Position numbers and translations under genes: made by a program | Shown here: positions 4,627-27,962 of the stretch, one piece after another | Layout of the letters: each line of letters starts with the position of its first letter | Position numbering within the stretch: the first letter of the stretch is position 1 | Origin: a virus | Taxonomy: Duplodnaviria > Caudoviricetes | Reading direction: 5' to 3' (one strand) | DNA length: 33,142 nt | Virus record (IMG/VR): IMGVR_UViG_3300025381_000061 | Coordinates: 1 to 33,142 of that record | Notes under the pieces: model-generated | The model's input: only the letters and a program-made list of their open reading frames with translations | Told to the model about the DNA's origin: nothing | Database searches by the model: none

Positions 4627-4971
4627 TTAAGCAGTTGCCCAAGGCAAAGCAGGTTTAATTACAGTAGGGTTAATTTGAGCAGCTAAGTCAGCATTGATAG
4701 CTGATTCAATAGCTTCTTGATTGACACCATTAGACCAGCACCAGCCAATCACTTGAGCTTTAGTAAGTTGAGCAAAAGGCGTAAAAGAACCATTAACTTC
4801 TGGTTCTGGAAATGTGCAACTACTGTAAATGCTGCTGTTAAATTCTTTATTGTTAACAATTTCAGAACCAGTAGCACGCCATCCAGCGGTCAGAACCACT
4901 TGAGTAAAACCATTGATGGTTTGAGTTGATTGTTCAAGCCAATCAATAGTCCAGTTGATAGTAGCCGCCAC
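4627..4971 (-). CDS. Tail-fibre-associated small protein (possible assembly chaperone)
   Basis: 114 aa, FTPFAQLTKAQVIGW...LPW pattern commonly found downstream of tail fibres; GTG start with GAAAGG RBS. Confidence 0.65.
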   Translation of the reverse strand: MAATINWTIDWLEQSTQTINGFTQVVLTAGWRATGSEIVNNKEFNSSIYSSCTFPEPEVNGSFTPFAQLTKAQVIGWCWSNGVNQEAIESAINADLAAQINPTVIKPALPWATA

Positions 4972-4989
4972 GATTAACCTTTCAATTGA

Positions 4990-6225
4990 TTAGGGGTGAG
5001 ATGCTTTGTAAGCATCAAATTCTGCTTTAAGTTCTTTGATTGCAGCAACCAAAAGCGGGATTGTGTCGGTATACGACAAACTTAAAGTACCAATTTTATC
5101 TTCGTTCACTTTAATTGCTTCTGGCAAAACTGCATTGACATCTTGTGCAATTAAAAATGGTCTGCGGACACCATCTGCATCAGTTTTGTATTTCCCTATA
5201 ACAGTACGCAGCGTTGAAACTTTGTTAACAGCATTGGTAATAGGTTCAATAATGTCTTTAATTCTTTCATCAGAAAAAGAAGACCAACTGTTGCCGTTTT
5301 GATATAAAACAACACCCGCAGTTCCACCACCAGAATAAACACTTGTATTACCGTTATTGTTTGATATAACAAACTGTTTTCCAGAATCGTTATATGAATT
5401 TATTGCTATTGCGCTTGTTTGACCGCCACCACCAAAAACGGCTGTGGCATTTGCTACGGTATAGACTGTTGCGCTGCCATAGGTCTGTACAACACCAGAA
5501 GAGTTAATAGTAAATCTAAGCGCAGAATTTGCCCAATCATAAATTTGAAAGTTTAAACCTGTTCCTCCTGTTGTAATGTTGTTGCCAATAAGCCAACGGT
5601 TTCCAGATGAGCCTACAAGTTGAATTTGAATGTTGTCGTCAGAACTGTTTGAATTTTGTAGTCTTAATAAACTAGCAGTAGCTCCGCTAGCGTGAATAAG
5701 TGCGCTAGGGCTATTAGTACCGAGGCCTAAATAATTTGCGCTTGTAAGGCGCATACGTTCAGAAAATGATTCAGAACCTTGTGAACCTGTGTATGTATAA
5801 AAAGCAATACCAGTTCCAGATAAGCTGGTTATTGCACCACCACCGCCAGCAGCAGTACCAAATTGAAAACCACCACCAGCAGAATTTACAGCAGAAAATC
5901 CAACAGAGGTTCCGCTAGAGCCTGTTGTTGTACCAACAAGCAATTGGCTTCCCGTAAATTGTAAAACAGACCCCGTAGCAAGCGAACTTGTAGAGTTTGC
6001 ATAAACTACACCACCAGAAGTAAAGCTGGTCAATCCTGTACCGCCATTAGCACCAGAAAGAGGTGTAGTTGTCAAAGACAATGACGCTGCACTTACAGCT
6101 CGACCAGCCGTTAAGTTAGCTACGCTAACGCTATCAGTTACACCAGACTGATTGATTGGCACAATTTCACTACCCGACAATGGAGTAGTGGCTGACGATA
6201 ACGCTGATATTTTGGTGTTAGCCAT
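4990..6225 (-). CDS. Tail fibre with C-terminal intramolecular chaperone (peptidase S74)
   Basis: Gly/Ser/Thr-rich body, ERMRLTS..LGLGTNSP repeat, SDERIK cleavage motif, LIAQDVNAVLPEA...LVAAIKELK. Confidence 0.9.
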   Translation of the reverse strand: MANTKISALSSATTPLSGSEIVPINQSGVTDSVSVANLTAGRAVSAASLSLTTTPLSGANGGTGLTSFTSGGVVYANSTSSLATGSVLQFTGSQLLVGTTTGSSGTSVGFSAVNSAGGGFQFGTAAGGGGAITSLSGTGIAFYTYTGSQGSESFSERMRLTSANYLGLGTNSPSALIHASGATASLLRLQNSNSSDDNIQIQLVGSSGNRWLIGNNITTGGTGLNFQIYDWANSALRFTINSSGVVQTYGSATVYTVANATAVFGGGGQTSAIAINSYNDSGKQFVISNNNGNTSVYSGGGTAGVVLYQNGNSWSSFSDERIKDIIEPITNAVNKVSTLRTVIGKYKTDADGVRRPFLIAQDVNAVLPEAIKVNEDKIGTLSLSYTDTIPLLVAAIKELKAEFDAYKASHP

Positions 6226-8036
6226 TATTGTGCCGCCAAGTAGCTGCCAGAAATGTAAAACTTAGATGTTGAGCCTATGTTGCTGTTAGTGATGGACGAT
6301 TGCGTTCCACCTGTATCAGTAACCAAAGCAATTGAGCTGCTATTGTCATTGATAAACCAACCAAGCACACCCGTGTATGTGCAGTTAATAGCTTGGACAG
6401 GGCCAGTTGCTCCATACACACCAGTTGCAACAGATGCAGCATCAGGCATACTTCCTAAATTAACTGATACCGAACCTGTACCACTAACAGAACCATTCAA
6501 TTGAATTGTTATGTCAAAGAAAATTCGTTTGCCAACTCGGGTATAAAAACCTTCTTGAATGTTATACGCTGACTGTACTGTGCTACCAACTGATATGGTT
6601 GGGGTAAACGAGCCTGTAATTCCGTAAATACTATCGACATTGCCAATTGTTTGTGCGGTTACTGAGTTTGCATTTCCAAGAAAAATTGAACCATACACCG
6701 CTTGGTTGTTTGATACTACATTGGTGTTTGGTGCATATATAGCATAGCCATTAGTAATGCCTGAAGTTTGGTCAATGTAATTGTTTGAAATCAAATTTGA
6801 GCTGTAACTAACAAGCATTTGGTGAACACCACTTGCCGTGTTAGAAGCATTGCAACCATATATGTAATTGTTAGAGATTACAGAGTTGTTGTAGTCCAAA
6901 GCCATGCCTGATTGCTGGCAGTTTCTAGCATTGTTTCCAACAAATTGAACAAACGAACCATCAGCATAAAAGCCTGTACCATGATTGCCATAAGTCATGT
7001 TGCCAATGACTTGATGACGTGCATCAATAGTTCCAGTATGAGGATAGTCCGAACTTAAATCAAACCCATCGTAATACTGAAACATAGTTGTATTGCCAAT
7101 GAACTGCATGTGATAGCAACGGGCATCTACGCCAGCAGTCGTACCTTGGTAGGTTTTGATGCCCGATTCACCGCAATAAGAAATAATGTTGCCTTGGGCT
7201 AAACCATCAAAGTTTCTGGCAAACGTGATACCTGAATAGCTTGCGTAAGTAATGTTGTTGTTGATCGCAGCGTTGCGCTCGCCTTGCTGATTGTTAATGT
7301 TCCAAAAAACAATACCACCAACATCAGCAGCACCCCCTTGGAATGTGCAATCTCGAACTGTTGAGTAAGTTGCATCATGGATGCTAATAGTTACAAACAA
7401 ACCATAAATGCGACTTACATTAATGTTTGTTGCATTGCCGCCAAAATAAATTACAGGGCCGATTGACGTATAAGTAGGTGTCGGAGAAAGATCATTGTCA
7501 TTTACCGTTGGTTGATACCCTGCATGACTACCAGCACTTGACGTATACGGTGTTGGATTAGATGCCCAAGTTGTTGTATTACGGCTAATGATTGAGGGCC
7601 ATGTAATGCTTTGCAAATATAAGTTATCAATGCTTGAGTTATTTCCAGAAGTTACATTGATAACAGTTGAATCATTTTTAATGATAGATTCAGCGCCAAC
7701 CCCACGCCAAACCACGGTTCCTGTGTAGGTAACTGAAGAAAGCATTTTGTAAGTGCCAGCAGGGAAGAACACGGGTTTACCCGTATTGGTAGCAGCTTGA
7801 ATAGCTGAAGTGCTATCGCTTAAACCTGTAGGGTCAGCGCCAAAATCCAAAACACTTACAGACTCTTGCAACTTAGCTTGAACCGTAGTGGTTACTGCGC
7901 CTGTGCCGCCTTCGTTGTACTGAATGCCTGCTGCGGCAAGCGGTGTGGGGAAGTTGCCGTTGTAAACGGCGTCGTTGACGTCGTTCAGCCAGGACGAAGC
8001 GATGATGGTTCCGCTGTTGAAAACTGTTGAGCTCAT
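6225..8036 (-). CDS. Tailspike / depolymerase (beta-helix) with N-terminal virion anchor
   Basis: TVQAKLQESVSVLDFGADPTG.SDSTSAIQAA...VFFPAGTY; beta-helix repeats; C-terminal YTRVGKRIFF fibre-tip-like domain. Confidence 0.88.
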   Translation of the reverse strand: MSSTVFNSGTIIASSWLNDVNDAVYNGNFPTPLAAAGIQYNEGGTGAVTTTVQAKLQESVSVLDFGADPTGLSDSTSAIQAATNTGKPVFFPAGTYKMLSSVTYTGTVVWRGVGAESIIKNDSTVINVTSGNNSSIDNLYLQSITWPSIISRNTTTWASNPTPYTSSAGSHAGYQPTVNDNDLSPTPTYTSIGPVIYFGGNATNINVSRIYGLFVTISIHDATYSTVRDCTFQGGAADVGGIVFWNINNQQGERNAAINNNITYASYSGITFARNFDGLAQGNIISYCGESGIKTYQGTTAGVDARCYHMQFIGNTTMFQYYDGFDLSSDYPHTGTIDARHQVIGNMTYGNHGTGFYADGSFVQFVGNNARNCQQSGMALDYNNSVISNNYIYGCNASNTASGVHQMLVSYSSNLISNNYIDQTSGITNGYAIYAPNTNVVSNNQAVYGSIFLGNANSVTAQTIGNVDSIYGITGSFTPTISVGSTVQSAYNIQEGFYTRVGKRIFFDITIQLNGSVSGTGSVSVNLGSMPDAASVATGVYGATGPVQAINCTYTGVLGWFINDNSSSIALVTDTGGTQSSITNSNIGSTSKFYISGSYLAAQ

Positions 8037-15547: not shown

Positions 15548-17017
15548 TCAGTAGCCGGTCACTTTAGAGCGGCCCATTGTACGTTTAGGACTGTTGCTGC
15601 GCGCTTCAATCTCTTCGTCATCGTAAAAATCTTCTTCCTCGAGTTCGGACATGGTCTCGAACCCCTTGACGAGGAGCGCGGTGGAGTCGAACTGGTCATC
15701 CTGCGCGGCGTCGCTAAAACCCGTGAAGCGCAGCAGCTCGTTCTCGTAGGTCGGATACCAGGACGCATCTTTGTCGTACTTCACGCCGCCAGCGCGCATG
15801 TGTTTCTGGAGTGGGCGGCCGCGAGTCGCTTTGTCGCGGGTGGGCAGAATCGGCTGGCAGTTGATCCAGCGGTCGCGCACCTGCATCTCTTTGTAGAGGG
15901 TCGGGGCCACGCTTTTCCAGATCACGCCGTCTTCAACAAAGAATACGGCCGGGTTCCAGCGCTTTTGGATCGAGAACATCTCGTTGATCCACTCGAGTGT
16001 GTCCCACCGGCCCAGGCGCTGGTCGACCACATGGATGAAGTTCTCCACGCACTTGCCGCCCACGGTGAACGAGGTGCGGTTGGCCTTGTCTTTCTTCGAC
16101 ACGGCGAAGTCACACCCGACGGCGTAAATCTTTTCGCGGTCGTGGTCGCTCTCGTCCATGGGCAAGAAGTCGTCGCTCCGCAGGTACGCCTCGGAGTTGT
16201 CCATCGGGTCGTTTAGGTACTCCTGCGAGTAGCCGCCGGCGTCGCCCTGCTCGATGTAGTCTTGCCGGATGGACTTGAGCCGCTCCTCAGAAAACTGTTC
16301 CGGCCACAGGATCTCGGTGAAGTCGTCGAACCCGTTGTGGGCCTTGTACAGCTTGGAGGTCCAGGTCTTGGCCTTCATGAGCTTGGCCAGCAACGAGTCC
16401 TCGTGCAGGATCGTGCCGTGCACACGGACGACACCACCGCGGCGACGGGTGGGGAGCACGGCGCGCAGGAACCAGCGTTGAAAGCGGTCGCGCGAATCCT
16501 TGTTCTCGATTTGGGCGTCGTCTTCCAAGTCATCGCAGACGATCAGGCCGGGCCGCTTGCCGTTCCACTTCAGACCCCGCATCTTTTGTCCCGAGCCCTT
16601 GGCGATGATCCGGCACTGGTGGCCGTCTTGGAACTCGACAACGATGTCGGTCTTCATGTCGACCGTGAACGCCTTGATCTTAAACTGAGCGATCAGGTCG
16701 TCGTTCTCCCTGAGTTCTTTGGCGATGTCAGCCAAGTGGCTCATGGCCAGGTCTTCTGTGGCCGACACGATGACGATGAAGTCCTGCTCGCGAAACAGGG
16801 TCACGGCCAGCACGTAGTCGTGGGTGAGCGCGGTGCTCTTGGCATGACTACGGGGAGCGGCCACGGCGCAGAGCTCCGAGTCACCGCAGTACATGCCCCA
16901 GCACTCCCGGTGGAACTCAGGAGTCGGCTGGGGGTTGTCGTACATGGGTGACAGGAACGTGCCAGCGAACGCCTCGATCAGTGGGGCGCTCAGCTTGACA
17001 CGGTTCACTGCTGACAT
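15548..17017 (-). CDS. terL: Terminase large subunit
   Basis: Walker A APRSHAKST, Walker B IVCDDLED, GTILHEDS, nuclease GCDFA and DDQFDS. Confidence 0.95.
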   Translation of the reverse strand: MSAVNRVKLSAPLIEAFAGTFLSPMYDNPQPTPEFHRECWGMYCGDSELCAVAAPRSHAKSTALTHDYVLAVTLFREQDFIVIVSATEDLAMSHLADIAKELRENDDLIAQFKIKAFTVDMKTDIVVEFQDGHQCRIIAKGSGQKMRGLKWNGKRPGLIVCDDLEDDAQIENKDSRDRFQRWFLRAVLPTRRRGGVVRVHGTILHEDSLLAKLMKAKTWTSKLYKAHNGFDDFTEILWPEQFSEERLKSIRQDYIEQGDAGGYSQEYLNDPMDNSEAYLRSDDFLPMDESDHDREKIYAVGCDFAVSKKDKANRTSFTVGGKCVENFIHVVDQRLGRWDTLEWINEMFSIQKRWNPAVFFVEDGVIWKSVAPTLYKEMQVRDRWINCQPILPTRDKATRGRPLQKHMRAGGVKYDKDASWYPTYENELLRFTGFSDAAQDDQFDSTALLVKGFETMSELEEEDFYDDEEIEARSNSPKRTMGRSKVTGY

Positions 17018-18144: not shown

Positions 18145-18381
18145 TTACCCCAGTGCCATACGGTGGTGTTGACGAACAGCATCGGCGTCGGTGGGCTCGT
18201 ACTGCTGGTTCATCGGGTTGACGTTCATGATGTTCGACGACTTACCGGCCTGGTACGCCATACCTGCCTTATCAGCGGGGTAGCGCACAGCTGGGCCCTG
18301 TGGGGGCTTGGTCGTCTTTGCCGGTTTTTGGTTGGCCATGCCCTTGACGGGTGTTGCCATCATCTTACTTTGCTTCGACAT
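18145..18381 (-). CDS. Small basic hypothetical protein
   Basis: 78 aa (start could be 18363); in-operon position. Confidence 0.6.
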   Translation of the reverse strand: MSKQSKMMATPVKGMANQKPAKTTKPPQGPAVRYPADKAGMAYQAGKSSNIMNVNPMNQQYEPTDADAVRQHHRMALG

Positions 18382-18943
18382 CGATAGCTCCTGAGTTATC
18401 TCGTGGACGGAGCGCCACGAGTCGCTTAGCGAGATTATCTAGGTGATTGCTCTCGATGACAACTGCCGCCGCTTTGGCCTGGCCCATCCCCATCGCTTTA
18501 GTCGAAACCTCCAGCGCCTTAAGCACCAAATTGTCCGACACCTGATCTGCCGATTTACTGAGCTTCTCGTGGATGACGTCCAGGGAGCGGTTGACTACCG
18601 CCTGGAGTCTCTCCTCCGTGGACGCAATGATGATCGGGTTGATCACCTCGTCGCGGCGCTTCTCGAGCAGTCGCTTAAACGCAACACTGTTGATGATCAG
18701 GTTGGTCCACGAGGGGCTAAGCCCATACTGCTCACCCAGCTCCGCAGTAGTCATTTCAGGACGAGCAAGGATCGTGTCCACCATCGCTCGGTGAACATTG
18801 TTCAAAACCTTGGGACCTTTGGGAGGGACTGGCGCAATCTGCTTCATCGGCAAATCGAGGTCCAGATCCGGCACATTGAATTGTGGCGCAGATAAAAAAT
18901 CCGGCAGGTCCGTGGTCGACTGATTAACTTGGGTGTCTTCCAT
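18365..18943 (-). CDS. Probable terminase small subunit (HTH protein)
   Basis: HTH-like HRAMVDTILARPEMTTAELGEQYGLSPSWTNLIINSVAFK followed by a helical region; first gene of the late operon upstream of TerL. Confidence 0.6.
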   Translation of the reverse strand: MEDTQVNQSTTDLPDFLSAPQFNVPDLDLDLPMKQIAPVPPKGPKVLNNVHRAMVDTILARPEMTTAELGEQYGLSPSWTNLIINSVAFKRLLEKRRDEVINPIIIASTEERLQAVVNRSLDVIHEKLSKSADQVSDNLVLKALEVSTKAMGMGQAKAAAVVIESNHLDNLAKRLVALRPRDNSGAIDVEAK

Positions 18944-18995: not shown

Positions 18996-19630
18996 GTGAC
19001 AAATTGACTCACGTTGGGGTGGTTGGCTTTGGGAATTTAGGTATCTGGTGTGTCTGGTGTGTCCCGTGGGTCTCTGTGATCAGGGTTCAAAATTTTGCAA
19101 AAAAATTCACGGGGGTCATATAGATATTTTTGGGAGCCCAGATTTTCCCCCCGCCCCCCGAGAATCCGGGCCGCCGTTATACCGGCCCCCGGGGATCGAA
19201 GCGCGCCGGGCCGCCCGGGATCATGGGGGCCGATTCGGCCGGGACCCCGTGGGGGCCGGGCTCGGTGTAGCGCGTGACATATTGACTCGGACCCCATGAG
19301 CCCATGAGCCCCGGCCGGGTTACCGGATACCGGCCCCACGGTTACGGGATCCCGTGGGTCCGGGGAACCCCAGCCCCCATTTCACCTTGATAGTTTTTCA
19401 CTATTGATCCGAGCAAATTAATAGATCGCTTCAATGATCATAAACCCAGCGGGGCACGATCCCCCGGCCCCATGCGATAGAATAACCCACGGGACCAAGC
19501 GCGCCCCCAGCATGTGACAAATTGACTCCGCGCGTGAACACTTTTATTTTCATTCGAATTAAGATCCCCCGGACACTAAATATATATAGTGAAAAAATAC
19601 ACCGCGCGCGCGGAGTCAATTTGTCACATG
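18996..19630. repeat. Four copies of 15-bp box GTGACAWATTGACTC; the last two form a 24-bp perfect inverted repeat
   Basis: 18996-19010 (+), 19274-19288 (+), 19514-19528 (+), 19613-19627 (-); IR arms 19511-19534 and 19607-19630. Confidence 0.92.
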
Positions 19631-19668
19631 ATCCAATTGTAAAGAATTGTAAAGCACGCACAAACCAA

Positions 19669-19696
19669 TGGACACATGGTCCCGGGGATGTACAAT
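19669..19696 (+). promoter_or_regulatory. Putative early promoter
   Basis: TGGACA-16 bp-TACAAT, preceded by tandem AATTGTAAAG x2 (19635-19654) and followed by hairpin ATGCACCGG/CCGGTGCAT (19704-19727). Confidence 0.55.
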
Positions 19697-19732
19697 GCAA
19701 CACATGCACCGGACAAACCCGGTGCATACTTT

Positions 19733-19759
19733 GTAACCGTAACCCGTAACCGTAAGGAT
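19733..19759 (+). repeat. GTAACC(C) intergenic linker, copy 1
   Basis: GTAACCGTAACCCGTAACCGTAAGGAT, ending in the RBS of the first early gene. Confidence 0.95.
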
Positions 19760-19764
19760 TGAAA

Positions 19765-19878
19765 ATGAGCTTCGATACATTTTGCAAATACACCGCTGGG
19801 GCCGCTTTGGTTTTGCTCGGCTTAACCTTGGTTTTGTCAATCGTGACATTCTCGGCCGCTTTTACTCTGGGGGCTTGA
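19765..19878 (+). CDS. Small membrane peptide (37 aa)
   Basis: MSFDTFCKYTAGAALVLLGLTLVLSIVTFSAAFTLGA; TAAGGA RBS; not in the ORF track. Confidence 0.7.
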   Translation: MSFDTFCKYTAGAALVLLGLTLVLSIVTFSAAFTLGA

Positions 19879-19880
19879 TC

Positions 19881-19979
19881 ATGTACAAAGATTTAACCCT
19901 TGATATCGCTTTAGCTTTGATCATTGCTGCAGTGCTTTGCGTGCTGGCATTGTCCTATTTTGACGTTTTGACCAAGTAA
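19881..19979 (+). CDS. Small membrane peptide (32 aa)
   Basis: MYKDLTLDIALALIIAAVLCVLALSYFDVLTK; GGGGG RBS. Confidence 0.7.
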   Translation: MYKDLTLDIALALIIAAVLCVLALSYFDVLTK

Positions 19980-20002
19980 CCGTAACCCGTAACCGTAAGG
20001 AT
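19976..20002 (+). repeat. GTAACC(C) intergenic linker, copy 2
   Basis: 27/27 identical to 19733-19759; supplies the upstream TAA stop and the downstream RBS. Confidence 0.95.
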
Positions 20003-20007
20003 AAAAA

Positions 20008-20310
20008 ATGAAAAACGATACCCCAGCAATTTTGAGCGCTGCAGTCGATCGCTTAGCCGTTATCAAGGCCACGATCGCCGAATTGAAAACAGAAGAAAAC
20101 AATTTAAAACAATCGTTGATCGATAGCGGGGCCGCTATCGTCGACGGGACTCTACACCGCGCCGCGGTGTCCTATTGTGACGGCCGCACGTCGATCGACT
20201 GGCAAAGTATCGCGGCTAAATTTAACCCCAGCCGTCAATTGATAACGGCCCACACGTCGACGGGGGATCCGTTCTATTCGGTCCGCGTGTCCGCACGTAA
20301 GGGGGCTTGA
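20008..20310 (+). CDS. Early hypothetical protein (N-terminal coiled coil)
   Basis: 100 aa; TAAGGA RBS. Confidence 0.8.
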   Translation: MKNDTPAILSAAVDRLAVIKATIAELKTEENNLKQSLIDSGAAIVDGTLHRAAVSYCDGRTSIDWQSIAAKFNPSRQLITAHTSTGDPFYSVRVSARKGA

Positions 20311-20312
20311 TC

Positions 20313-20594
20313 ATGAAAAAACAATTTAACCCATTTTTTGAGGTTTCGAGCCGATACGGTGCACCAATGGGCCGGCGTGGGGATAACCCGGCGAATTTGG
20401 CCGGTGTAAAGCGTTTACATGCCCGTCACCAAGGCGGGGGCGACGGATACGATAAGGGCGGGGCTTACTGGGGCACGCCGTGTAACGTGTGGGGCGTGTG
20501 GGCTCGGATCGACGGCGAGCCGTGTGTGGTTTATGTACGGGCGAATTCTAGAACGGCCGCTATCGATATGGTCCGCGCGGGGGATGCATCATGA
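20313..20594 (+). CDS. Early hypothetical protein with YGAPMGR / YDKGGAYWG motifs
   Basis: 93 aa; motifs recurrent in phage early proteins; ATG 20313 after GGGGG RBS. Confidence 0.8.
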   Translation: MKKQFNPFFEVSSRYGAPMGRRGDNPANLAGVKRLHARHQGGGDGYDKGGAYWGTPCNVWGVWARIDGEPCVVYVRANSRTAAIDMVRAGDAS

Positions 20595-20932
20595 GAATTT
20601 TGGCCACTAAATTGAGAAACCAATTTTCGAGCGCGTACACCGTAACCTTGAAAAATGTAATTATTAACGGCGACAAACGCGGATGCACCGGGTTTATATC
20701 GCGCGGGGATGCGATCGTGTACGTCAACACCGAGCTATTCGGACCTCAAGGGTACTTGTACCGCACGGCCGAGCACTTGAAAGACTACACGGGCGGACAG
20801 AATCGCTGGGCCCCGGACCTTGAATCATTGGTGAAAAGAATCACGGACCTATTGACGGCCGAGTCAATACGTAAGCGCGCCGGGATCCCGGCGGACAATT
20901 TGATCGTGTACACCGTGGGGGATTCAAAATGA
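20591..20932 (+). CDS. Early hypothetical protein with KDYTGGxN motif
   Basis: 113 aa; ATGA coupling at both ends. Confidence 0.8.
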   Translation: MRILATKLRNQFSSAYTVTLKNVIINGDKRGCTGFISRGDAIVYVNTELFGPQGYLYRTAEHLKDYTGGQNRWAPDLESLVKRITDLLTAESIRKRAGIPADNLIVYTVGDSK

Positions 20933-21609
20933 AATATCATTTCATCCGCGAATCGGGAAACCGAAAAACCGGCCCAATACCGGTTACTTACTCCGAGCGG
21001 GAAACGTGCCCAGAATCGTGCCCTCATTACCGCTCGGATTGTTACGCCGAAGACTATTACACGCGCTTATCATGGGATAAGGTCCCCCAGCGTGGGGGTG
21101 AATTGTCCGCGCTTTGTGAATCCGTGGCCCAGTTACCGGCGGGGCAATTGTGGCGCATGAATGTGGCCGGGGACTTACCCGGCCGCGGTGAATCCGTCGA
21201 TCCCGTGGCACTTGGTCAAATTGTCCGCGCGAATATCGGCCGCCGGGGGTTTACATACACTCACAAAAAATCCGCGGATGCCATAACGTGGGCAAAGCAT
21301 GCGACGGACTGGGGGTTCACCGTGAATTTAAGCGCGGATGATGCCGGCGAAGCGGATATATTAGCGGACCTTAATTCTGGGCCCGTGGTTTGTATTGTGC
21401 CCATGGATACCCCAGAAAAGACACAAACCCCCGGGGGCCGTTCAATCGTGGTTTGTCCCGCACAAACCCGGGACCATGTGACGTGCGAATCGTGTGGGCT
21501 TTGTGCGCGTGCGAATCGGGCCGTTATTGTGGGTTTTCGTGCCCATGGATCCAAAGCGAAACAAACCGATAGTAAAGCGCGCCGAATTATTCCAATTGCC
21601 ACGGCGTAA
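20929..21609 (+). CDS. Cys-rich GP88-like putative Fe-S / radical-SAM-related protein
   Basis: SGNRKTG...TCPESCPHYRSDCYA, WRMNVAGD, GFTYTH, NLSAD, CPAQ...TCESCGLCA...GFRAHG. Confidence 0.65.
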   Translation: MKYHFIRESGNRKTGPIPVTYSERETCPESCPHYRSDCYAEDYYTRLSWDKVPQRGGELSALCESVAQLPAGQLWRMNVAGDLPGRGESVDPVALGQIVRANIGRRGFTYTHKKSADAITWAKHATDWGFTVNLSADDAGEADILADLNSGPVVCIVPMDTPEKTQTPGGRSIVVCPAQTRDHVTCESCGLCARANRAVIVGFRAHGSKAKQTDSKARRIIPIATA

Positions 21610-21631
21610 CCCGTAACCCTTAACCGTAACC
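21605..21631 (+). repeat. GTAACC(C) intergenic linker, degenerate copy 3
   Basis: CGTAACCCGTAACCCTTAACCGTAACC, starting at the stop codon of the upstream gene. Confidence 0.85.
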
Positions 21632-21657
21632 CCCGGCCCATGTGGCCGGGCTTTTTT
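21632..21657 (+). terminator. Intrinsic terminator in the early operon
   Basis: CCCGGCC-CATGT-GGCCGGG-C-TTTTTT. Confidence 0.85.
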
Positions 21658-21675
21658 GATCCTTGAAAGTGAAAA

Positions 21676-21873
21676 ATGAAATACACCGAAGCCGAATATA
21701 TAAACGCGGGGTATCGATACGAGCGGGCCCCCAATAGGATCACGGGCCAAGCCGTGGCCGCTTTGATCCGGACCATGCTTGAATCCGAATCGATCCCGGA
21801 CCGGGGCGAAGCTCGCCGATTAATTGAGCTGGGCCGGGCCGAAGCGCGCCCACGCGCCCACGCGCACGCATGA
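21676..21873 (+). CDS. Early hypothetical protein
   Basis: 65 aa, MKYTEAEYINAGYRYERA...ARRLIELGRAEAR. Confidence 0.7.
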   Translation: MKYTEAEYINAGYRYERAPNRITGQAVAALIRTMLESESIPDRGEARRLIELGRAEARPRAHAHA

Positions 21874-21877
21874 GCCC

Positions 21878-22066
21878 ATGAGCACCCCCGCCCCCACGCG
21901 CCCACGCGCACCCGTGGCCATTGGGCCCCCTACGCGTGCGCCCACGCCTACGCGCACCCCCGCGCCTACGCCTGCCCAGGTCTGGCCGTTCCCACGGGCG
22001 ATCCTGCCCACGCGCCCCGGCGCGCCACTGTTTAACCCTGACAACTTCGAAGAGGCCCCACTATGA
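21878..22066 (+). CDS. Pro-rich hypothetical protein (62 aa)
   Basis: MSTPAPTRPRAP...VWPFP...FNPDNFEEAPL; ATGA coupling to the next gene; composition partly dictated by the motif array. Confidence 0.5.
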   Translation: MSTPAPTRPRAPVAIGPPTRAPTPTRTPAPTPAQVWPFPRAILPTRPGAPLFNPDNFEEAPL

Positions 22067-22407
22067 CCCTGCCCGATTGGATGAACCCACCCACGCCCAC
22101 GCGTGCGCCTACGCGCGCCCCTGAGCCCCCACGCGCCTACGCGTCCACGCGCACCCCTGAGCGCAAGCGCATACCGCTCCACGCGGATCCAGGCACGCCC
22201 AAACGCGTGTCGGACCTACGCGCACGCATGGGCCTGTCACTCAACAAAATGTCGCGCCTGATGGGCGTGGAGAATGCCACCTATCGCAAATGGGAAACCG
22301 GCGAACGCATCCCCACGGCCGCGGCTACGCGCCTGATCGACATCATGGAGCAGATCGAGACCCACGCCCCCGCGCTCCACGCGCGCCTGATCGCGGAGGT
22401 GATGTGA
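22063..22407 (+). CDS. Xre/Cro-type HTH DNA-binding protein
   Basis: LRARMGLSLNKMSRLMGVENATYRKWETGERIP. Confidence 0.85.
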   Translation: MTLPDWMNPPTPTRAPTRAPEPPRAYASTRTPERKRIPLHADPGTPKRVSDLRARMGLSLNKMSRLMGVENATYRKWETGERIPTAAATRLIDIMEQIETHAPALHARLIAEVM

Positions 22408-22547
22408 TGATCGACGACGACTACGACTTCGACCTCGAGGAGCTGCGCCAGGAGTCGCGCGCAGCCAGGTGGCTACACCGCCGGCTGCTCGACCACCCGG
22501 ACCCACAGGACCCAGACTACCCTGAGCTGGAGGATGACGAGGAATGA
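22407..22547 (+). CDS. Small acidic protein (46 aa)
   Basis: MIDDDYDFDLEELRQE...HPDPQDPDYPELEDDEE; GGAGGT RBS; TGATG coupling. Confidence 0.7.
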   Translation: MIDDDYDFDLEELRQESRAARWLHRRLLDHPDPQDPDYPELEDDEE

Positions 22548-22891
22548 CCCCGATCTCACTCGCCGATCGCCTACGCGCGCTCCTACGCGCGCACCCTGAA
22601 GGGCTGCGGGTCCTAGCGATCCAAGGTCATCTGGGGGGCGACTACCGAACCTCGATCGCCAACTGCTTGCGAAGGATGCCCGACGCCTACGTGAAGGACT
22701 GGGTCTGGCAAAGGACTGGCTGGGCTGCCGTGTGGGCGGTGGTCTACGACAAACCCAAGCCACAGGGCAGGCCGATCACTCGTCCTGATCCTCCAGCCCC
22801 TTCACGCGCCTACGCGCATGGGGGGCCAGCCGGTAAATCTCGTCAAGCTGGCGCTGTTTGGCCGCCAGCACTGCCGCGCGGTGGCCCTTGA
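22544..22891 (+). CDS. Hypothetical protein, possible winged-helix
   Basis: LRALLRAHPEGL...LRRMPDAYVKDW...AVWAVV; ATGA coupling; 3' end overlaps the primase gene convergently. Confidence 0.6.
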   Translation: MTPISLADRLRALLRAHPEGLRVLAIQGHLGGDYRTSIANCLRRMPDAYVKDWVWQRTGWAAVWAVVYDKPKPQGRPITRPDPPAPSRAYAHGGPAGKSRQAGAVWPPALPRGGP

Positions 22892-25238
22892 ACATGGTCA
22901 AGAGCTTGGGGTTGATGGCCCACTGGGCGAAGTGCTGATTCTCTTTCGTGCCGTCGTCCACGCGGATCACCCAGGTGGCCTGCTCTAGCAGCGCCATCGC
23001 GCCGATCACCATCTGGTCGGCCTGCCACTGGCTCACGCCCTCCACCTGCCTACGCGCGGACCTCTTGATCTCGCCCAGGGTCAGGGTTGACTTGTCAGCG
23101 TGCTGGATCACATAGTCGGCCACCCACGCGTCAAACGAGTTGCCGCCCACCTCGCCCAGGGAGTAGCGCAGCGCGGGGATCACATAGTCCTTCACCACGC
23201 GGATCACGCGCTCCACGATCTCAGGCCCGACCACAATGTCGAATGGCCGCTCCATGAGGTGGAACAGGATGATCAGCCTGCCGGTCGTGCCCTCGATCTT
23301 GCCAAACGCGGTCATGAACGAGTCAGGCGACGACAGGATGCGCTCGTCCTTCTTTGCGGTCTCATACCAGCGCTGGAACTCGCGGAACACCTTGTGGGCA
23401 GCCGGAGAGAGCTTGTAGGTCTGGGCCGGTAACGCGTAAACCAGGCGCAAAGTCTGCTCCCACTGGGCCTTGTTGGTCATGAACTCGGGGATGGGCTCAC
23501 CCAGTCGCGTCTTATCACCTCGCAGGATCGCAGGTATGAACCGCTGGAGCAGGCCATCACTGGTCAGGCTGGCCAGATTGTCGCGGTACACTTTGGGCTG
23601 GATGTTGCCGTAAATCGAGACAGCCAGGTTCTCGCAGTGGATCGACCCGGACCCCACCCGGTCCATGTCGTATTTTTCTGACTCGTAGCTGACAACCCAG
23701 GCTGAGCGATCCTCGCCGCTGGTCTTGTCGGTGAGCTTCTTCACCCAGCTGTTCATTTCGTCCAGGTAGCACAGCAGGCCCCGAGGTCTCTCAGCAGCCT
23801 GGCGCACGAGCTTCTGGGATGTTACGTCATTGACAACGATACGCACCGGCGTCGGGGCTGGCGGGAGATCGTTGACGACCGGTGCAGCCGATGGGTCCAG
23901 CTGACCCTCTGGTGTCTTATGGTACTCAGTGAAAGCCTTGTGCGCGGCCTCGTGGGCTGCCTCTTTGCCTTCCCAATCGAGCATTTCCTTCTTGTATCTT
24001 GGCGCGTCTTCTGATTCAATATCACGTAGCGCCGACAGCATGGGTCTGGAGCCTGGACTCTTTTTGTCTGCTGGATCCCCAATCGTCATGAGCCAGAGCA
24101 CCGGCGGGACCTGAAAGCCTGGCATCAACTCAAGTCGGATCTCAGCGTCGACAACCCCGCAGACAGCCGACAAGCCTGCGAAGAGCGGGACCAAAGGGTC
24201 ACAGCCCACACTTTCCGATACCTGCTGAGCCCTGGTGGCCAGCACAGATGGCCACAGCGACAGATCGATCTCAGGAGCCGGGGGCTTGAGCCCGGACATC
24301 ACCTCGAGCGGTGCGTCTGGCGACTCGATGGACTTGAACAGTTCTGATGCGTCTGGCATGGGCCTGCTCCATCCGTGCTGCTTGGCAATGTGAAAAAGTG
24401 TCCCGAGCTTGACACTGTTGACCTTGTCGGTCTTGAAGCTGTTCCACTGTGCAATGAGGGTGCGCTCTCCAGGGTACTTGGGCGAGGGCATCGACCACTC
24501 GTTCCAAAGCGAGAGCGCCTGATCGAGTTGATTGGTCTGCGACCCGGCCCAGTTGAGCGCCATGCCGACATGCACCCACTCTTCCCTTGAACAGTCTGGA
24601 TTGATGGCCTCCATGGCCTGGCGAATCTCTTCCCATGACGCATTGATGGCGTCCCCAGTGGTCAGGTTTCGCACCTTGTCCGAGTCAAGGAGCTTTTGCC
24701 ACAGATCGAGCAGAAACTGAGGGATGATCGGCAGCCGGGTCCAGTGACCCCGGCCTGCCCAGCGGTACGGTTGCAGGGTCTCAGGGTGAATGGATGGGGG
24801 CAGGACATCCTGCACCGTGAGACCGTTGGCCGTGCTGGAGCGCAGCTCGTAGACCGTCTGGCCATTGACCAAGACCTTCTTTGATGGCAGCGACAGACCA
24901 AAGGGCATGGAGTAGAGCAGCTTGCCGTGGCCAGCCTTGCCCGACTCGATGATAACGGCGTCCGGTGCGTCGTAGAGGGTCTTAAGATCGATGCCCTGGG
25001 CGATTGTTGCGTCCCAGTTGTCGATGTCAAAAGCCATCGTGCCGCTGTAAGCATGGGCAAGCCCGATGCCAAAGCCCGGCGGCAGCTGGGTCTGGTCCTT
25101 AAGTGCTTGGGTCTTTTGGTTCCAGCCTGCGGTGCGGGGTCCCTTGGTCCCTTGGGGGATCGGTACAAGTGACCAACCGTGGCGAATATAAGCATCGACT
25201 GATGCGGGGTGCTGTTGAACTGACTGTACAGGTAGCAT
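22776..25238 (-). CDS. Primase-polymerase / PriCT-2 / DUF3987 (YfjI-like) helicase fusion
   Basis: YIRHGWSLVPI..GTKGP...AFDID (Prim-Pol); REEWVHVGMAL...GTLFHIAKQHGW (PriCT-2); GDPADKKSP, LLCYLDEM, GNIQP, DGLLQRF (DUF3987); ATG 25238 preferred over TTG 25283. Confidence 0.85.
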   Translation of the reverse strand: MLPVQSVQQHPASVDAYIRHGWSLVPIPQGTKGPRTAGWNQKTQALKDQTQLPPGFGIGLAHAYSGTMAFDIDNWDATIAQGIDLKTLYDAPDAVIIESGKAGHGKLLYSMPFGLSLPSKKVLVNGQTVYELRSSTANGLTVQDVLPPSIHPETLQPYRWAGRGHWTRLPIIPQFLLDLWQKLLDSDKVRNLTTGDAINASWEEIRQAMEAINPDCSREEWVHVGMALNWAGSQTNQLDQALSLWNEWSMPSPKYPGERTLIAQWNSFKTDKVNSVKLGTLFHIAKQHGWSRPMPDASELFKSIESPDAPLEVMSGLKPPAPEIDLSLWPSVLATRAQQVSESVGCDPLVPLFAGLSAVCGVVDAEIRLELMPGFQVPPVLWLMTIGDPADKKSPGSRPMLSALRDIESEDAPRYKKEMLDWEGKEAAHEAAHKAFTEYHKTPEGQLDPSAAPVVNDLPPAPTPVRIVVNDVTSQKLVRQAAERPRGLLCYLDEMNSWVKKLTDKTSGEDRSAWVVSYESEKYDMDRVGSGSIHCENLAVSIYGNIQPKVYRDNLASLTSDGLLQRFIPAILRGDKTRLGEPIPEFMTNKAQWEQTLRLVYALPAQTYKLSPAAHKVFREFQRWYETAKKDERILSSPDSFMTAFGKIEGTTGRLIILFHLMERPFDIVVGPEIVERVIRVVKDYVIPALRYSLGEVGGNSFDAWVADYVIQHADKSTLTLGEIKRSARRQVEGVSQWQADQMVIGAMALLEQATWVIRVDDGTKENQHFAQWAINPKLLTMFKGHRAAVLAAKQRQLDEIYRLAPHARRRVKGLEDQDE

Positions 25239-25281
25239 ATAATTGACTCGTCTAATGGTGATTTCGCAGTTGCCTGACTTC

Positions 25282-25316
25282 AAGCCCCGGCCCTACCAGG
25301 TCGGGGTTTTCTTTTT
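25282..25316 (+). terminator. Hairpin with T-tract in the primase / replication-operon intergenic region
   Basis: AAGCCCCGGCC...GGTCGGGGTTT followed by TCTTTTT; also lies in the primase leader on the minus strand. Confidence 0.5.
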
Positions 25317-25603: not shown

Positions 25604-25994
25604 AGCTCTGACGCAAGTCATGACCCGCATCGCCGTCGCCCTCGAGTCGGCCAATGTAGCACCAGTCGAACAAGTTGTGCAAGCTCCACAACCCGTGGTA
25701 CAAGCGCCCGTTATTGTGGCTGCACCAGCGCCAGCACCTGTTGCTGCACCTGCTCCCGTCATGCCCGCGGCTCCCACCTTCATCGCTCCCGCACCCGTGG
25801 CAGCTCCAGTGGGTGCACCGTTTAACGATGGCAAGGGCCTGATCGAATACGTCATGACCGCCTACAAGGCCATGGGTGCTGAAAAAGGTGCTCAGATCCA
25901 AGGCGTGCTGTCCACCCTGGGCTACAGCAACATCAACGACGTGAAGCCCGAGCACTACTCGGCTCTGTACGCAGGTGTGGAAGCGCTGAAATGA
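25581..25994 (+). CDS. Hypothetical protein typical upstream of DUF2800 genes
   Basis: MSLEAKIEALT..., Ala/Pro linker, C-terminal LGYSNINDVKPEHY. Confidence 0.75.
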   Translation: MSLEAKIEALTQVMTRIAVALESANVAPVEQVVQAPQPVVQAPVIVAAPAPAPVAAPAPVMPAAPTFIAPAPVAAPVGAPFNDGKGLIEYVMTAYKAMGAEKGAQIQGVLSTLGYSNINDVKPEHYSALYAGVEALK

Positions 25995-27301
25995 GCACTC
26001 ACTCGTCACTGTCACCCTCCAAGGCGGTGCGCTGGCTTGCCTGTCCCGGCTCGATCCGGGAAGAGGCCAAGTACCCCGACGAGGAGAGCGGCGCGGCCGC
26101 TGTTGACGGTACTCACTCTCACACAGTACTTGAGAACTGCATCATCGGCGGCCTGGCTGACCCCAGCATCGCTATTGGCAAGAAGTTCAAGGACCATGAG
26201 GGCGAGTTCGTGGTGGACGAAGCGCGCGCTGACCGTGTGCGCCTGGCCATCGACTACATCAAGGAGCGCGGCAAGGAGCTCGGCGCTGATTGTGAAGTGA
26301 TCCCTGAGCAGAAGGTCGACCCGGCGCACTACCTCGGCCGCAAGGACATGTCTGGCACAGCTGACGTGCAGATCCATGCCTTCACCGCCCGGGTGCTCGA
26401 GGTGATCGACTACAAGGACGGCATGAACTACGTGCCCGTCCAAGACAACCCTCAACTCGAGCTCTACGGTCTCGGTGCACTGGCTGCGCTGAAGCTGCCG
26501 ATCAATGGCGACTATCCCTTCGACAAGGTGCGTCTGACCGTGATCCAGCCCAAGCTGCTGCTCAAGGGCATGAACCCGATCAGCCACGTCGAGATGTACG
26601 TGAACCAGCTGCTCGACAAGATCGGCAAGTACGTGATCGGCGGGATGCGGGTGGACGACCCCCAAGCGCCCCTGATCCCTGGCGACGCGCAGTGCAAGTA
26701 CTGCAAGGCCAAAGGGTGCTCCGCGCGTCAGGACAAGGTCATGGACGCCATGGGACTGTTCCAGCCGGTGGCCCAGCAGGCCGAGCAAGCACTCGAGATC
26801 TCGCAGCAAGCCGCTGACAAGGACCCGGCCAAGATGGACGATCAGCAGATCCGTCAGATCATGGAAGCCGCGCCTTTGATGCGTCAACTGCTCGAGGGTG
26901 TGGAAGCCGAAGCACTGCGCCGGTTTAAGGCTGGCCAGAGCATTCCAGGTCTGAAGGCAGTCTATGGTCGCGGCAGCCGCTCGTGGTCATTTGCTGACGA
27001 GGACATGGCCGAGAAGCTCATGAAGATGGGCATCCCGAAGGCGTCGATCTACGAGGTCAAGTTGATTTCACCGGCCAAGGCCGAGAAGCTCACCTGGACC
27101 GCGAAGAAGAGTGGTGTGGAGGTCAAGAAGCAGCTCACTGAGCGTCAGATCAAGACCATGCACACTGAGTATGTAACGAAGATGGCCGGTAAGCTGACCA
27201 TCGTCCCCGAGTCTGATGATCGTCCTGCGGTCGTCATGAACGCTGCACCATTATTCAGTGCAGTGGAAGAAGTACCGGCATTGCCGGATTGGTTAAAGTA
27301 A
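25991..27301 (+). CDS. DUF2800 Cas4-like PD-(D/E)XK nuclease
   Basis: HSSLSPSKAVRWLACPGS, GTADV, VIDYKDG, NPQLELYGLG, CKYCKAKGC. Confidence 0.9.
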   Translation: MSTHSSLSPSKAVRWLACPGSIREEAKYPDEESGAAAVDGTHSHTVLENCIIGGLADPSIAIGKKFKDHEGEFVVDEARADRVRLAIDYIKERGKELGADCEVIPEQKVDPAHYLGRKDMSGTADVQIHAFTARVLEVIDYKDGMNYVPVQDNPQLELYGLGALAALKLPINGDYPFDKVRLTVIQPKLLLKGMNPISHVEMYVNQLLDKIGKYVIGGMRVDDPQAPLIPGDAQCKYCKAKGCSARQDKVMDAMGLFQPVAQQAEQALEISQQAADKDPAKMDDQQIRQIMEAAPLMRQLLEGVEAEALRRFKAGQSIPGLKAVYGRGSRSWSFADEDMAEKLMKMGIPKASIYEVKLISPAKAEKLTWTAKKSGVEVKKQLTERQIKTMHTEYVTKMAGKLTIVPESDDRPAVVMNAAPLFSAVEEVPALPDWLK

Positions 27302-27314
27302 CTTTGGAGTAATC

Positions 27315-27962
27315 ATGTCAGATATTATTTTGTTGTCAGATGTTCGTTTGTCTTTCCCCCACTTGGTCGAGCCCCAAAAGCAAGTCAATGAACAAACGGG
27401 TCAAACCCGTGTGTCCTACAACTGCGAGTTCATCATGCCCCAAGAGCACCCTGGTTTCCAGGCGTTCTTCAAGCGCTACGGTGAGCTGGCCTTGGACAAG
27501 TGGAAGGAGCACGCCAACACCGTGATGGGAATGATCCAGAACGATCGCAAGACCCGCTGCTTTGGTCGTGGTGAAGAGAAGGTCAACAAGAAAACTTTCC
27601 AACCCTACGACGGCTACGCTGGCAACGTGTTCATCACGGCTGGCCGGGACCAAGCTCCCCAGATCATCGAGGCCAACGGCCAACCGATCGATCCCACCAA
27701 CACCATGGCTTACCAGATGCTGACTCGTAAGATGTATGGCGGCTGTCGAGTCAACGCCGCGGTCAAGCCTTGGATTCAGGACAACAAACATGGCCGCGGC
27801 ATCCGTTGCGACCTGATCGCTGTCCAGTTCTTCAAGGATGACACCCCGTTCGGCGAAGGTTCTGTCGATGCGTCTAACTTGTTCGGCGCTGTTTCCAACC
27901 CTGCCCAAGCTATCCCCTCACCCGGCGGCATGGGTCTGCCACCTTTCATGACTGGAGTCTAA
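27315..27962 (+). CDS. DUF2815 single-stranded DNA-binding protein (T7 gp2.5-like)
   Basis: VRLSFPHLVEP, MYGGCRVNA, GIRCDLIAVQFFKDDTPFG. Confidence 0.9.
   Translation: MSDIILLSDVRLSFPHLVEPQKQVNEQTGQTRVSYNCEFIMPQEHPGFQAFFKRYGELALDKWKEHANTVMGMIQNDRKTRCFGRGEEKVNKKTFQPYDGYAGNVFITAGRDQAPQIIEANGQPIDPTNTMAYQMLTRKMYGGCRVNAAVKPWIQDNKHGRGIRCDLIAVQFFKDDTPFGEGSVDASNLFGAVSNPAQAIPSPGGMGLPPFMTGV

Follow-up and report, generated by a model that had tools for sequence, protein, structure and literature searches.

The window analysed here, the whole 33,142-nt stretch from a freshwater phage with a GC content of 54%, contains a dense array of one short word, and the evidence supports this array being a DNA-level, strand-polar signal that is under selection and written through five genes. 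As judged from the sequence, a Chi-type signal, which the original prediction for this locus overlooked, would best fit its sequence, strand and place. The array and the genes bearing it are:

21851..23210, plus strand: array of 25 YACGCG copies with the consensus CCYACGCGC
21676..21873, plus strand: 65-aa ORF, conserved in relatives, two copies at its 3' end
21878..22066, plus strand: 62-aa ORF, five copies in two frames, C-terminal part similar to an ORF in relatives
22063..22407, plus strand: XRE-type HTH protein (PF01381), nine copies in three frames, three of them in the conserved core
22544..22891, plus strand: 115-aa ORF overlapping the 3' end of the primase gene, four copies, two shared with that gene
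22776..25283, minus strand: Prim-Pol/PriCT-2/DUF3987 primase-helicase, seven copies in the last 150 codons and none in the first 686

The plus strand of the window contains 28 copies of YACGCG, 25 of which lie within the array, at exactly the coordinates first listed for them. The hexamer named originally is correct, but the consensus is longer (CCYACGCGC), and C precedes 23 of the 25 copies. On the minus strand the array reads GCGCGTRGG, comprising 10 exact copies of GCGCGTG and 8 of GCGCGTA, with the remaining 7 diverging more. Both the window and the complete 43.8-kb genome were considered; the proposed per-strand density check placed all 23 forward copies of CYACGCG in the genome inside the array and found the word under-represented outside the array and the leader that precedes it (7 observed against 23–29 expected). 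As had been claimed, the reverse complement within the array is confined to ACGCGT palindromes (21933, 22100 and 22204), and the non-palindromic copies there number 21 forward and 0 reverse (p ~1e-6). Eight non-palindromic reverse copies occur outside the array, five of them in the leader, which holds a single forward copy. Density falls from left to right as described (13, 3, 4 and 5 copies in successive 350-bp bins), and 5 of the 24 gaps between copies have a tandem spacing of 8 bp. Markov simulations using the regional composition gave a mean of 2.1 copies and a maximum of 8 in 3000 runs at order 1, and a mean of 6.2 and a maximum of 17 at order 2; an order-3 model, fitted in large part to the motif itself, gave a mean of 13.4 and reached 25 in 4 of 3000 runs.

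All 25 copies lie inside ORFs and are spread over five of them. The 20 copies in plus-strand ORFs are divided 5/7/8 among the frames, and the seven in the primase gene occupy all three, two copies being counted under both the 115-aa ORF and the primase gene. Codon resampling yielded an excess in the HTH gene (9 copies, 1.2 expected), in ORF 21878 (5, 0.5 expected) and in the last 150 codons of the primase gene (7, 1.0 expected), each with p<1e-4, while none of 15 control genes exceeded expectation. Five of the seven motif places in the primase gene are kept in a relative, one of these five in a shifted register that alters the amino acids. The local-composition and codon-resampling nulls thus confirm an array far above chance that runs in different frames through five genes into the 3' end of the opposite-strand primase, and the codon-level excess, the polarity and the kept primase sites bear out its description as an oriented DNA-level signal.

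The array follows a leader of unusual composition, and this part of the genome, with the terminase and recombination genes, comprises:

15548..17017, minus strand: large terminase subunit, transcribed away from the leader (phrog_38, E 8e-76)
18365..18943, minus strand: probable small terminase subunit, assigned by position only, with no family match; 80% identical homologue in G003
19089..19135, no strand: A/T-tract plus G-tract element at the start of the purge; G003 and family B have one like it
19089..21970, no strand: leader from which asymmetric words have been purged (CAGG/CCTG 0 against 31 expected, CTGA/TCAG 0 against 28, CAG/CTG 25 against 120)
19511..19630, no strand: inverted repeat with perfect 24-bp arms flanking an AT-rich core of 72 bp; its 15-mer also at 18996 and 19274
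19669..19696, plus strand: sigma-70-like promoter match (10/12) before the early genes; 4 such matches found against 2.5 expected by chance
20929..21609, plus strand: DUF7227 leader gene, the largest early gene ahead of the array (PF23872, E 4e-76)
21632..21660, plus strand: intrinsic-terminator-like hairpin about 200 bp upstream of the first copy
25991..27962, plus strand: recombination genes of the phage itself, encoding a DUF2800 exonuclease and a Gp2.5-like single-strand binding/annealing protein

CAGG/CCTG is missing from 19081 to 21971 and CTGA/TCAG from 19080 to 22038. The array had been said to start where the purge ends; it begins ~120–190 bp earlier, and the link between array and leader is upheld by the purge coordinates and by an unrelated phage family (family B, described below). 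In that family 11 of 31 contigs bearing the A/T-tract plus G-tract element end 17–263 bp past it, and the packaging cut or a genome end likely lies within or close to the element. The purged leader is likely the DNA that enters first. In six runs contigs left of ~19.8–20.3 kb were 1.25–1.9x deeper than those to the right, a difference for which strain mixtures account at least in part; contig depth cannot rank places. Such an excess on the left would suit a leftward packaging series and was left unused as evidence. No doubled depth was seen over the array in assembled contigs, which cannot map genome ends.

Within the family of the studied phage (family A), the closest relatives, whose primases are ~80% identical, retain the array, and synonymous sites in the primase gene are among the places kept; it was absent from all 44 distant loci. 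On a primase tree built by a quick method the array is confined to one clade. One distant locus (L009) has seven reverse and no forward copies in the zone. It had also been asked whether relatives carry a different motif at the same place. Among further polar words seen in distant relatives, CCGCCG/CGCCGC and CGAAGC fall largely in a single frame, are absent from the primase 3' end and are likely protein-driven; CCGCGC occurs in mixed frames in four distant loci and remains a lead. No YACGCG array was found in phage DSL-LC05, the nearest named phage, whose gammaproteobacterial host is predicted only, and no clear array in Rhodoferax phage P26218, MW202796, MW202484, MW202753 or MW202825.

Family B, also of podophages, carries CCYACGCGC 1.7–4.1 kb from the same type of boundary and, with respect to the terminase, on the same strand; it was found via a motif search, so that the word was partly selected for, and only the strand, the distance, the purge and the additional copies count as independent of that selection. 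Its array likewise follows a similarly purged leader and straddles the end of the purge, the dense part lying 2.3–3.1 kb from the boundary element; in family A the first copy is 2763 bp from the element in G001 and 2852 bp in G003. All 13 loci with 96–100% terminase identity have 6–11 forward and 0–3 reverse copies in the zone, and when all words were ranked, ACGCG (106 forward, 18 reverse, 8.6 expected) and CCACGCG (31 forward, 1 reverse) came top. Family B has 598 terminase relatives. The array fades at 77–88% terminase identity. The genes found include RecE/RecT-like, RusA and anti-restriction genes. A tblastn comparison with the replication, regulatory and terminase ORFs of the studied phage gave no match, nor was a primase, polymerase or HTH match seen in 35 of 55 ORFs scanned. 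Across G001, G003 and family B the array tracks the boundary element and not the genes, and its consensus, strand and distance are common to two families between which no shared replication or regulatory ORF was found, independently of phage lineage. Since the same array occurs in an unrelated family in which neither the phage's primase nor its HTH protein was found, a host factor is favoured over either, and these comparisons point to the array being read by such a factor.

That the factor is a helicase-nuclease of the AddAB/RecBCD type, for which the array would be a natural Chi-type stop near the packaging cut, is our leading interpretation, held tentatively and at somewhat below an even chance. 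Ten copies are, on the minus strand, exactly the Chi word GCGCGTG of L. lactis, and the Caulobacter AddAB word GCGGTGGT also resembles the array word; because Lactococcus is an unlikely host, the former match may be due to chance. The accessible part of bioRxiv 10.1101/2021.07.08.451572 describes Chi as acting when approached from its 3' side, which here would correspond to an enzyme entering from the leader end; the polarity of 21 to 0 fits Chi only with a free end on the leader side, where it presumably lies. The terminase would cut near 19.1 kb and package leftward, and the abandoned leader end would be entered by the host enzyme moving right. Reading minus-strand GCGCGTRGG from its 3' side, the enzyme would cease degradation and load RecA, and the leader-side end could then recombine with a sister genome, rescuing replication genes and concatemers. 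According to the part of PMC5443536 available, an engineered oriented array of 15 chi sites slows AddAB, with a per-site recognition of ~0.23. With recognition at any one site occurring only some of the time, a large number of copies would be required, and the earliest of them would be the most important. Helical phasing is absent from G001 and G003 of family A, as expected if the word is read by a moving enzyme; family B loci, which are related and not independent, show some 10.5-bp phasing (z 3.9). In lambdoid phages with a recombinase and without a RecBCD inhibitor, Chi is concentrated toward the packaging site, as given in the accessible text of PMC3784561. Both families match this recombinase-positive, inhibitor-negative class as far as they were scanned and with the packaging site where it is presumed to lie; the scanned ORFs yielded no Gam- or Abc2-like inhibitor, although small unannotated leader proteins could be inhibitors. 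Chi function does not require the word to be under-represented elsewhere in the phage genome. A Chi array would work equally well inside the leader, yet the leader holds only its one forward copy, and the near coincidence of the array start with the purge end is left unexplained by a Chi function.

The main rival, possible but rather unlikely, is a checkpoint in staged DNA entry. The purged leader would enter first, and a host protein at the array, either one that binds it at the membrane or a motor moving along DNA in one direction, would hold or restart transfer after the leader genes act, much as the T5 injection stop does. The array starts close to a sharp purge end and straddles it in family B, its distance from the boundary is similar in both families, and the word is avoided elsewhere in the genome, as expected of a position-specific signal. 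The hairpin upstream of the array is placed where transcription-driven entry would stall, but in a crude scan neither G003 nor any of six family-B loci had a terminator ahead of the array. In T5-like phages only the first-step DNA has its restriction sites cut, according to the part of PMC10644984 consulted. However, the T5 injection stop is non-coding and structured, whereas the array lies entirely in coding sequence, extends over 1.4–2.5 kb and shows no phasing in family A; the KOPS word GGGNAGGG showed no enrichment in it, and the binder would be a hypothetical host protein. The more specific proposal that different small podophage families share a host-read polar word which ends the purged leader and gates or restarts transfer, embedded in coding sequence, run by a host motor and with no described counterpart, is slightly less probable still. 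A decoy for a sequence-specific host defence enzyme of a kind that cuts only between inverted sites (type III or type ISP-like), with same-direction copies bound but uncut, seems improbable. Short asymmetric words are typical of these enzyme classes, and the array word is asymmetric, polar and scarce elsewhere, beside a leader purged of short asymmetric words; against this, reverse copies are present in the leader and elsewhere, and both families retain the word although they differ in what else they avoid, GGCC being absent from family B and abundant in the studied phage. Restriction specificities usually differ between strains.

Binding of a phage protein, whether as iterons for Prim-Pol/DUF3987 in a P4- or SaPI-like origin, as HTH operators or as small-terminase sites, is highly unlikely. 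The array does overlap the HTH gene and the primase-helicase 3' end, and within family A it is restricted to one primase clade, but no homologue of these proteins was detected in family B. The suggestions of an origin or priming zone for the primase and of an operator array for the HTH protein are accordingly disfavoured; moreover, the HTH proteins of array-bearing G002 and G003 are 48% identical to that of the studied phage, and the recognition helix of array-bearing relatives is closer to that of array-less ones, so that the motif does not track the helix. Nor are the copies the usually palindromic promoter sites of an operator. The region 21851..23210 showed no inverted repeat set, AT-rich core, palindromic T5-type structure or DnaA boxes, the array lacks phased inverted sets and occurs in family B with no initiator detected, and cumulative GC skew gave neither a usable origin signal nor a clean switch. 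The inverted repeat at 19511–19630 would be a better origin or operator candidate than the array. Of even lower probability is an action on early RNA or on the transcribing host RNA polymerase (pausing, termination or RNA-binding sites): in both families the early genes have the copies on their sense strand, and the copies become sparser downstream, but seven lie in the opposite-strand primase gene, sense-strand genes of family B continue for several kb without the word, and Rfam gave no match at E<=0.1. Finally, the array could be a by-product of C/G-rich repeat slippage in dispensable small genes combined with the codon limits of the purged region, which we also regard as improbable. The frequent 8-bp spacing, the other C-rich, mostly single-frame words of distant relatives and the fact that tandem copies of the array's 8-mer in viral contigs are no commoner than the reversed word (86 and 93 stretches) would agree with it. 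It sits poorly with the retention of lone copies at synonymous sites of the conserved primase gene, with the one forward and five reverse copies of the leader, and with a reversed-pattern control in which 80 loci gave no dispersed coding array.

Searches for a host and for further arrays produced several leads that were discarded. A first pattern scan found 121 loci in 18 of 64 collection parts, most of which were protein repeats or lambda-O-like iterons. Non-coding tandem (CCYACGCG)n stretches occur in unrelated phages, some beside terminase genes, with the reversed word as common (93 against 86); their geometry, 7 window-like and 4 opposite, was dropped as support. When genome contigs were scanned for the pattern, the single find was a 429-bp contig from an Anabaena bin. 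Plasmid searches with GroES and ArdC gave no host indication, and at the one long-contig locus inspected from the metagenome scan no contig bore bacterial genes. The word was not enriched in the three non-host replicons counted, namely a Ralstonia chromid (132 copies, the reversed word having 206; ~60% lie on the leading strand if base 1 is the origin), a Cupriavidus chromid (139 against 194) and an Anabaena bin (255 against 319).

A survey of Proteobacteria, in the part of PMC8022716 available, found no Chi motif for most species. If the Chi interpretation is true, phage genomes would reveal the Chi word of uncultured hosts, a candidate word, strand and place being derived here from two abundant freshwater phage families, and the array would be an unusually dense natural Chi array, running through five genes at a cost in codon and amino-acid choice. 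If the entry interpretation is true instead, small podophages would have a novel staging of DNA entry. Literature searches, thin on subscription papers and made without supplements, returned no description of such an array.

Among known systems, iteron origins of the P4/SaPI type consist of 8-bp repeats beside primase-helicase genes. The array too has 8-bp repeats adjoining such a gene; unlike these origins, it has no inverted iteron set or AT-rich core and is present in a family in which the enzyme was not found. The nick sites of T5, phiKMV and tf are, in the accessible text of PMC3517423, asymmetric one-strand words like that of the array, and the T5 consensus R/GCGCRGG resembles GCGCGTRGG; however, they are spread genome-wide and made by phage enzymes, and the T5 form RGCGCRGG has only two matches within the array. 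The T5 injection stop is a 1.2-kb non-coding stretch that contains inverted repeats, palindromes and paired DnaA boxes and lies within a long terminal repeat (bioRxiv 10.1101/866236, in part). Both it and the array are rich in repeats and sit where restriction-purged DNA that probably enters first comes to its inner end, and in both cases the proposed binder is a host protein (available parts of bioRxiv 10.1101/866236 and PMC10644984). Unlike the T5 element, the array is coding and unidirectional, without DnaA boxes or palindromic structure, and no A1/A2 homologue was found.

Of the Chi words of AddAB/RexAB enzymes (GCGCGTG in L. lactis, GCGGTGGT in Caulobacter, AGCGG in B. subtilis), GCGCGTG is contained exactly in 10 of the 25 copies on the minus strand; eight copies have GCGCGTA instead, seven are further off, and a 54% GC freshwater phage is unlikely to have a Lactococcus host. 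Oriented chi arrays are reported to slow AddAB in vivo. Compared with the Chi clusters of lambdoid phages and P1, which act on RecBCD, the array has the word GCGCGTRGG and not GCTGGTGG, is denser (25 copies in 1.36 kb) and forms a single zone, and the array-bearing phages are podophages with no integrase found and a purged leader attached, while host and enzyme are hypothetical. As far as the available parts of PMC3784561 and bioRxiv 10.1101/2021.07.08.451572 describe those clusters, the array shares with them a short, asymmetric, G-rich word clustered between the replication genes and the packaging site (here a presumed one), an orientation that would suit an enzyme entering the end freed by packaging, and the company of a recombinase with no recognised inhibitor.

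The window is a portion of a podophage genome; G001 (43,785 bp), a longer record from this phage, has overlapping ends and is 100% complete. Its main features are as follows.

Window, minus strand: large terminase, SU10-like portal, GroES, capsid and tail genes
Window: Prim-Pol/PriCT-2/DUF3987 primase-helicase
Window, plus-strand block: DUF2800 exonuclease, Gp2.5-like protein, DNA polymerase and SNF2 helicase
19511-19630: 24-bp inverted repeat around an AT-rich core
21632-21660: terminator-like hairpin

The tail-fibre and tail-spike genes at 3000-8000 form an AT-rich block (GC 0.39-0.44), in which CGCG is absent and CCGG, GGCC and GATC are almost absent; this block was likely acquired. GGCGCC, GGYRCC, CTGCAG, TGCGCA and GCATGC, together with the asymmetric GCGAGC and GCCCGC, are strongly avoided throughout the window genome, and GCGGGC is enriched close to the primase end in several relatives.

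All 25 plus-strand YACGCG coordinates listed for the array (21851-23210) in the original prediction are exact; the whole window contains 28 copies, and simulation from the array region's own dinucleotides gave a mean of 2.1. Reverse copies in the array occur only within ACGCGT palindromes, as described, leaving 21 forward and 0 reverse non-palindromic copies. The motif is not equally frequent elsewhere: all 23 forward CYACGCG copies in G001 are located in the array and both reverse copies outside it, while YACGCG is under-represented outside the array and leader (7 seen versus 23-29 expected). The reversed control word is present in G001 in 12 and 8 copies. Five ORFs, including the primase end, hold all of the array copies, in every reading frame. 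Compared with the numbers expected from codon resampling, there are 9 copies versus 1.2 in the HTH gene (3 versus 0.44 in its conserved core), 5 versus 0.5 in ORF 21878, 2 versus 0.24 in the first 80 codons of ORF 22544, and 7 versus 1.0 in the last 150 codons of the primase gene, the first 686 codons of which contain none. None of 15 control genes exceeded expectation. Thus, the array is a DNA-level signal and not a protein repeat, as had been proposed. Helical phasing is absent in family A (the window phage and its primase relatives).

The closest array-bearing relatives, G002 and G003, in which the primase is about 80% identical, each carry 5 copies at the C-terminal end of the primase, where 50 other distinct loci have 0-2. 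The anticipated conservation was found: five of the seven primase places are kept in G002, one of these in a new register with altered amino acids, against 58% codon sharing at identical amino acids. In G003, 19 of the 21 forward CYACGCG copies fall within a 2.4-kb stretch whose genes partly differ. At 60-70% primase identity, all 44 distinct loci have 5 or fewer forward copies at the array's position, and one locus (L009) has 7 reverse and 0 forward copies there. A related polar word, CCGCGC, fills this zone after the leader gene DUF7227 in L045, L053, L103 and L099, and is also seen in L682 and L675 (9-21 forward versus 0-2 reverse, mixed frames); a weak ACGCGC/YACGCG excess is seen in L036 and L675. 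These could be versions of the signal specific to different hosts.

Before the array lies a leader of ~2.8 kb with a sharp start at an A/T-tract plus G-tract element (19089), located upstream of what is probably the small terminase gene. Asymmetric words, e.g. CAG, CAGG, CTGA, AGA and CTC, have been purged from this leader. The end of the purge is at 21971-22038, and the first array copy lies 120-190 bp earlier; the predicted junction therefore stands as proximity, with the first copies ahead of the purge end. A comparison of window 19089-21970, L043-L106 and loci of an unrelated podophage family (family B) revealed depletion of short asymmetric words in all leaders examined (14 further family-A, 9 family-B). 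The depleted set varies by lineage: CAG/CAGG/CTGA in the window, AGA/CAAG in G003, and CAA/CAAC, AGC and GAC in others. The window leader is enriched in GGCC, CCGG, AATT and CGCG. Direct copies of the 15-mer GTGACAAATTGACTC are found at 18996, 19514 and, with one change, 19274, and an inverted copy at 19613; these repeats (18996-19630) surround a TATATATA/CGCGCG core and represent a candidate origin or operator. A 19-bp CCGTAACC-type repeat at 19737, 19980 and 21611 directly precedes ribosome-binding sites of early genes, and GTAACC/TGTAAC clusters rank top of the scan in relatives L019 and L068. Turnover of small genes in the leader is evident from co-occurring strains, which have a further unit at 19922-20015 as well as an insertion at 20310-20321. 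Its features, and the comparison with T5-like phages, in which restriction sites are cut only in first-step DNA (PMC10644984), suggest that the leader would sit at a genome end and enter first.

Family B emerged when 18 of the collection's 64 parts were scanned for the motif pattern. Of the 121 loci obtained, most were protein repeats; six belonged to this one family (45-47% GC), and further members were then gathered with the family's terminase (598 relatives, of which 80 were kept). Its array lies upstream of the terminase on the same strand as in the window (30 loci with sufficient upstream DNA). Among the 16 loci tabulated, forward copies number 6-11 and reverse copies 0-3 in every one of the 13 whose terminase is 96-100% identical, at a distance of 1.7-4.1 kb from the boundary element; the three at 84-88% have 2-4 copies. 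The zone limits were set after data inspection, and the ranking, which covered all words, placed ACGCG, ACGCGC and CCACGCG at the top. Copies occupy every frame and non-coding DNA (15, 12, 26 and 9 unique contexts), and their consensus, CCYACGCGC, is that of the window. The leader is likewise purged, and where an extra gene separates terminase and boundary, the array moves with the boundary. Of 65 contigs examined, 31 carry the boundary element and 11 of these end 17-263 bp from it. The window's replication, regulation and packaging ORFs have no match in family B; only four tail-region or small ORFs match, in two distant members. RecE-like, RecT-like, RusA and anti-restriction proteins were identified among the 35 of 55 family-B ORFs scanned; these ORFs gave no hit to a primase, a polymerase, an HTH protein or Gam/Abc2.

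In a control scan of 80 loci each, the reversed pattern gave one qualifying locus, a non-coding minisatellite, versus nine for the real pattern (five family B, three from one pentapeptide-repeat contig, one proline-rich repeat); this outcome, one family versus none, lends thin support to the real pattern. The pentapeptide contig (L205-L207) carries about eight tandem genes with a common N-terminal MKTFEET leader. Non-coding tandem (CCYACGCG)n repeats occur in unrelated phages (L369, L372, L398, L370, L396, L418, L352), some adjoining terminase genes or DnaA-box-like words, and are not enriched over the reversed word. In L170, L173, L174, L162 and L187, clusters of CACGCGTG-type repeats, lambda-O-like iterons, precede a GGGAA tract in a probable replication-initiator gene. 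L489 (2,003,191 bp, in viral_contigs), filed as viral, is probably a cellular chromosome.

The array is real, selected, conserved and common to unrelated families; we infer its function. Because unrelated phages have this word in common, at a fixed distance from the likely end, its reader appears to be a host factor. A site for a phage protein is accordingly a very improbable reading: the predicted origin for the adjacent primase is weakened by family B, where the array occurs with no primase match among the scanned ORFs, and the predicted operator for the embedded HTH protein by that family together with the HTH alignment, in which the G002/G003 protein is 48% identical to that of the window phage and has a recognition-helix pattern common to array-less relatives. 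Iteron origin and operator array were rejected as classes on the features tested, as was a T5-type iss.

The reading we tentatively favour, at somewhat below even chances, is a Chi-type signal for a host enzyme, near a putative packaging cut. It leaves two facts unexplained, the word-free leader and the coincidence of array start and purge end. Both favour an entry checkpoint, a reading that is unlikely but comes next in probability; the array lacks the T5 iss structural features (bioRxiv 10.1101/866236). A polar decoy is quite improbable, and so is a by-product; an RNA-level element has the slightest chance. In the accessible literature that was searched, no account of such an array was found.

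As a Chi-type signal, the array would be met by an enzyme that enters from the leader end, travels rightward and would encounter GCGCGTRGG, the minus-strand reading of the consensus, from its 3' side. The leader end would be that left free by a terminase packaging leftward, a direction deduced from terminase orientation; packaging direction and terminase orientation are related in this way in lambda and P22. No enrichment of the word was detected in three non-host replicons (a Ralstonia chromid, a Cupriavidus chromid and an Anabaena bin).

Chi is active only when the enzyme approaches from the 3' side, and the L. lactis Chi, GCGCGTG (bioRxiv 10.1101/2021.07.08.451572), is contained in 10 window copies on the minus strand, 8 others reading GCGCGTA. 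In Caulobacter, recognition by AddAB is about 0.23 per site, and an oriented 15-site array cut degradation, whereas an inverted array did not; clustered sites possibly do not act independently (PMC5443536). Many copies with front-loaded density would make sense at such a recognition rate. In lambdoid phages that have a recombinase and lack an inhibitor, Chi sites cluster toward the packaging site (PMC3784561), and P1 has been proposed to hold Chi near its ends (bioRxiv 10.1101/2021.07.08.451572). In its mode of action the array would resemble the Chi clusters located close to packaging sites, yet it is not classifiable as Chi.
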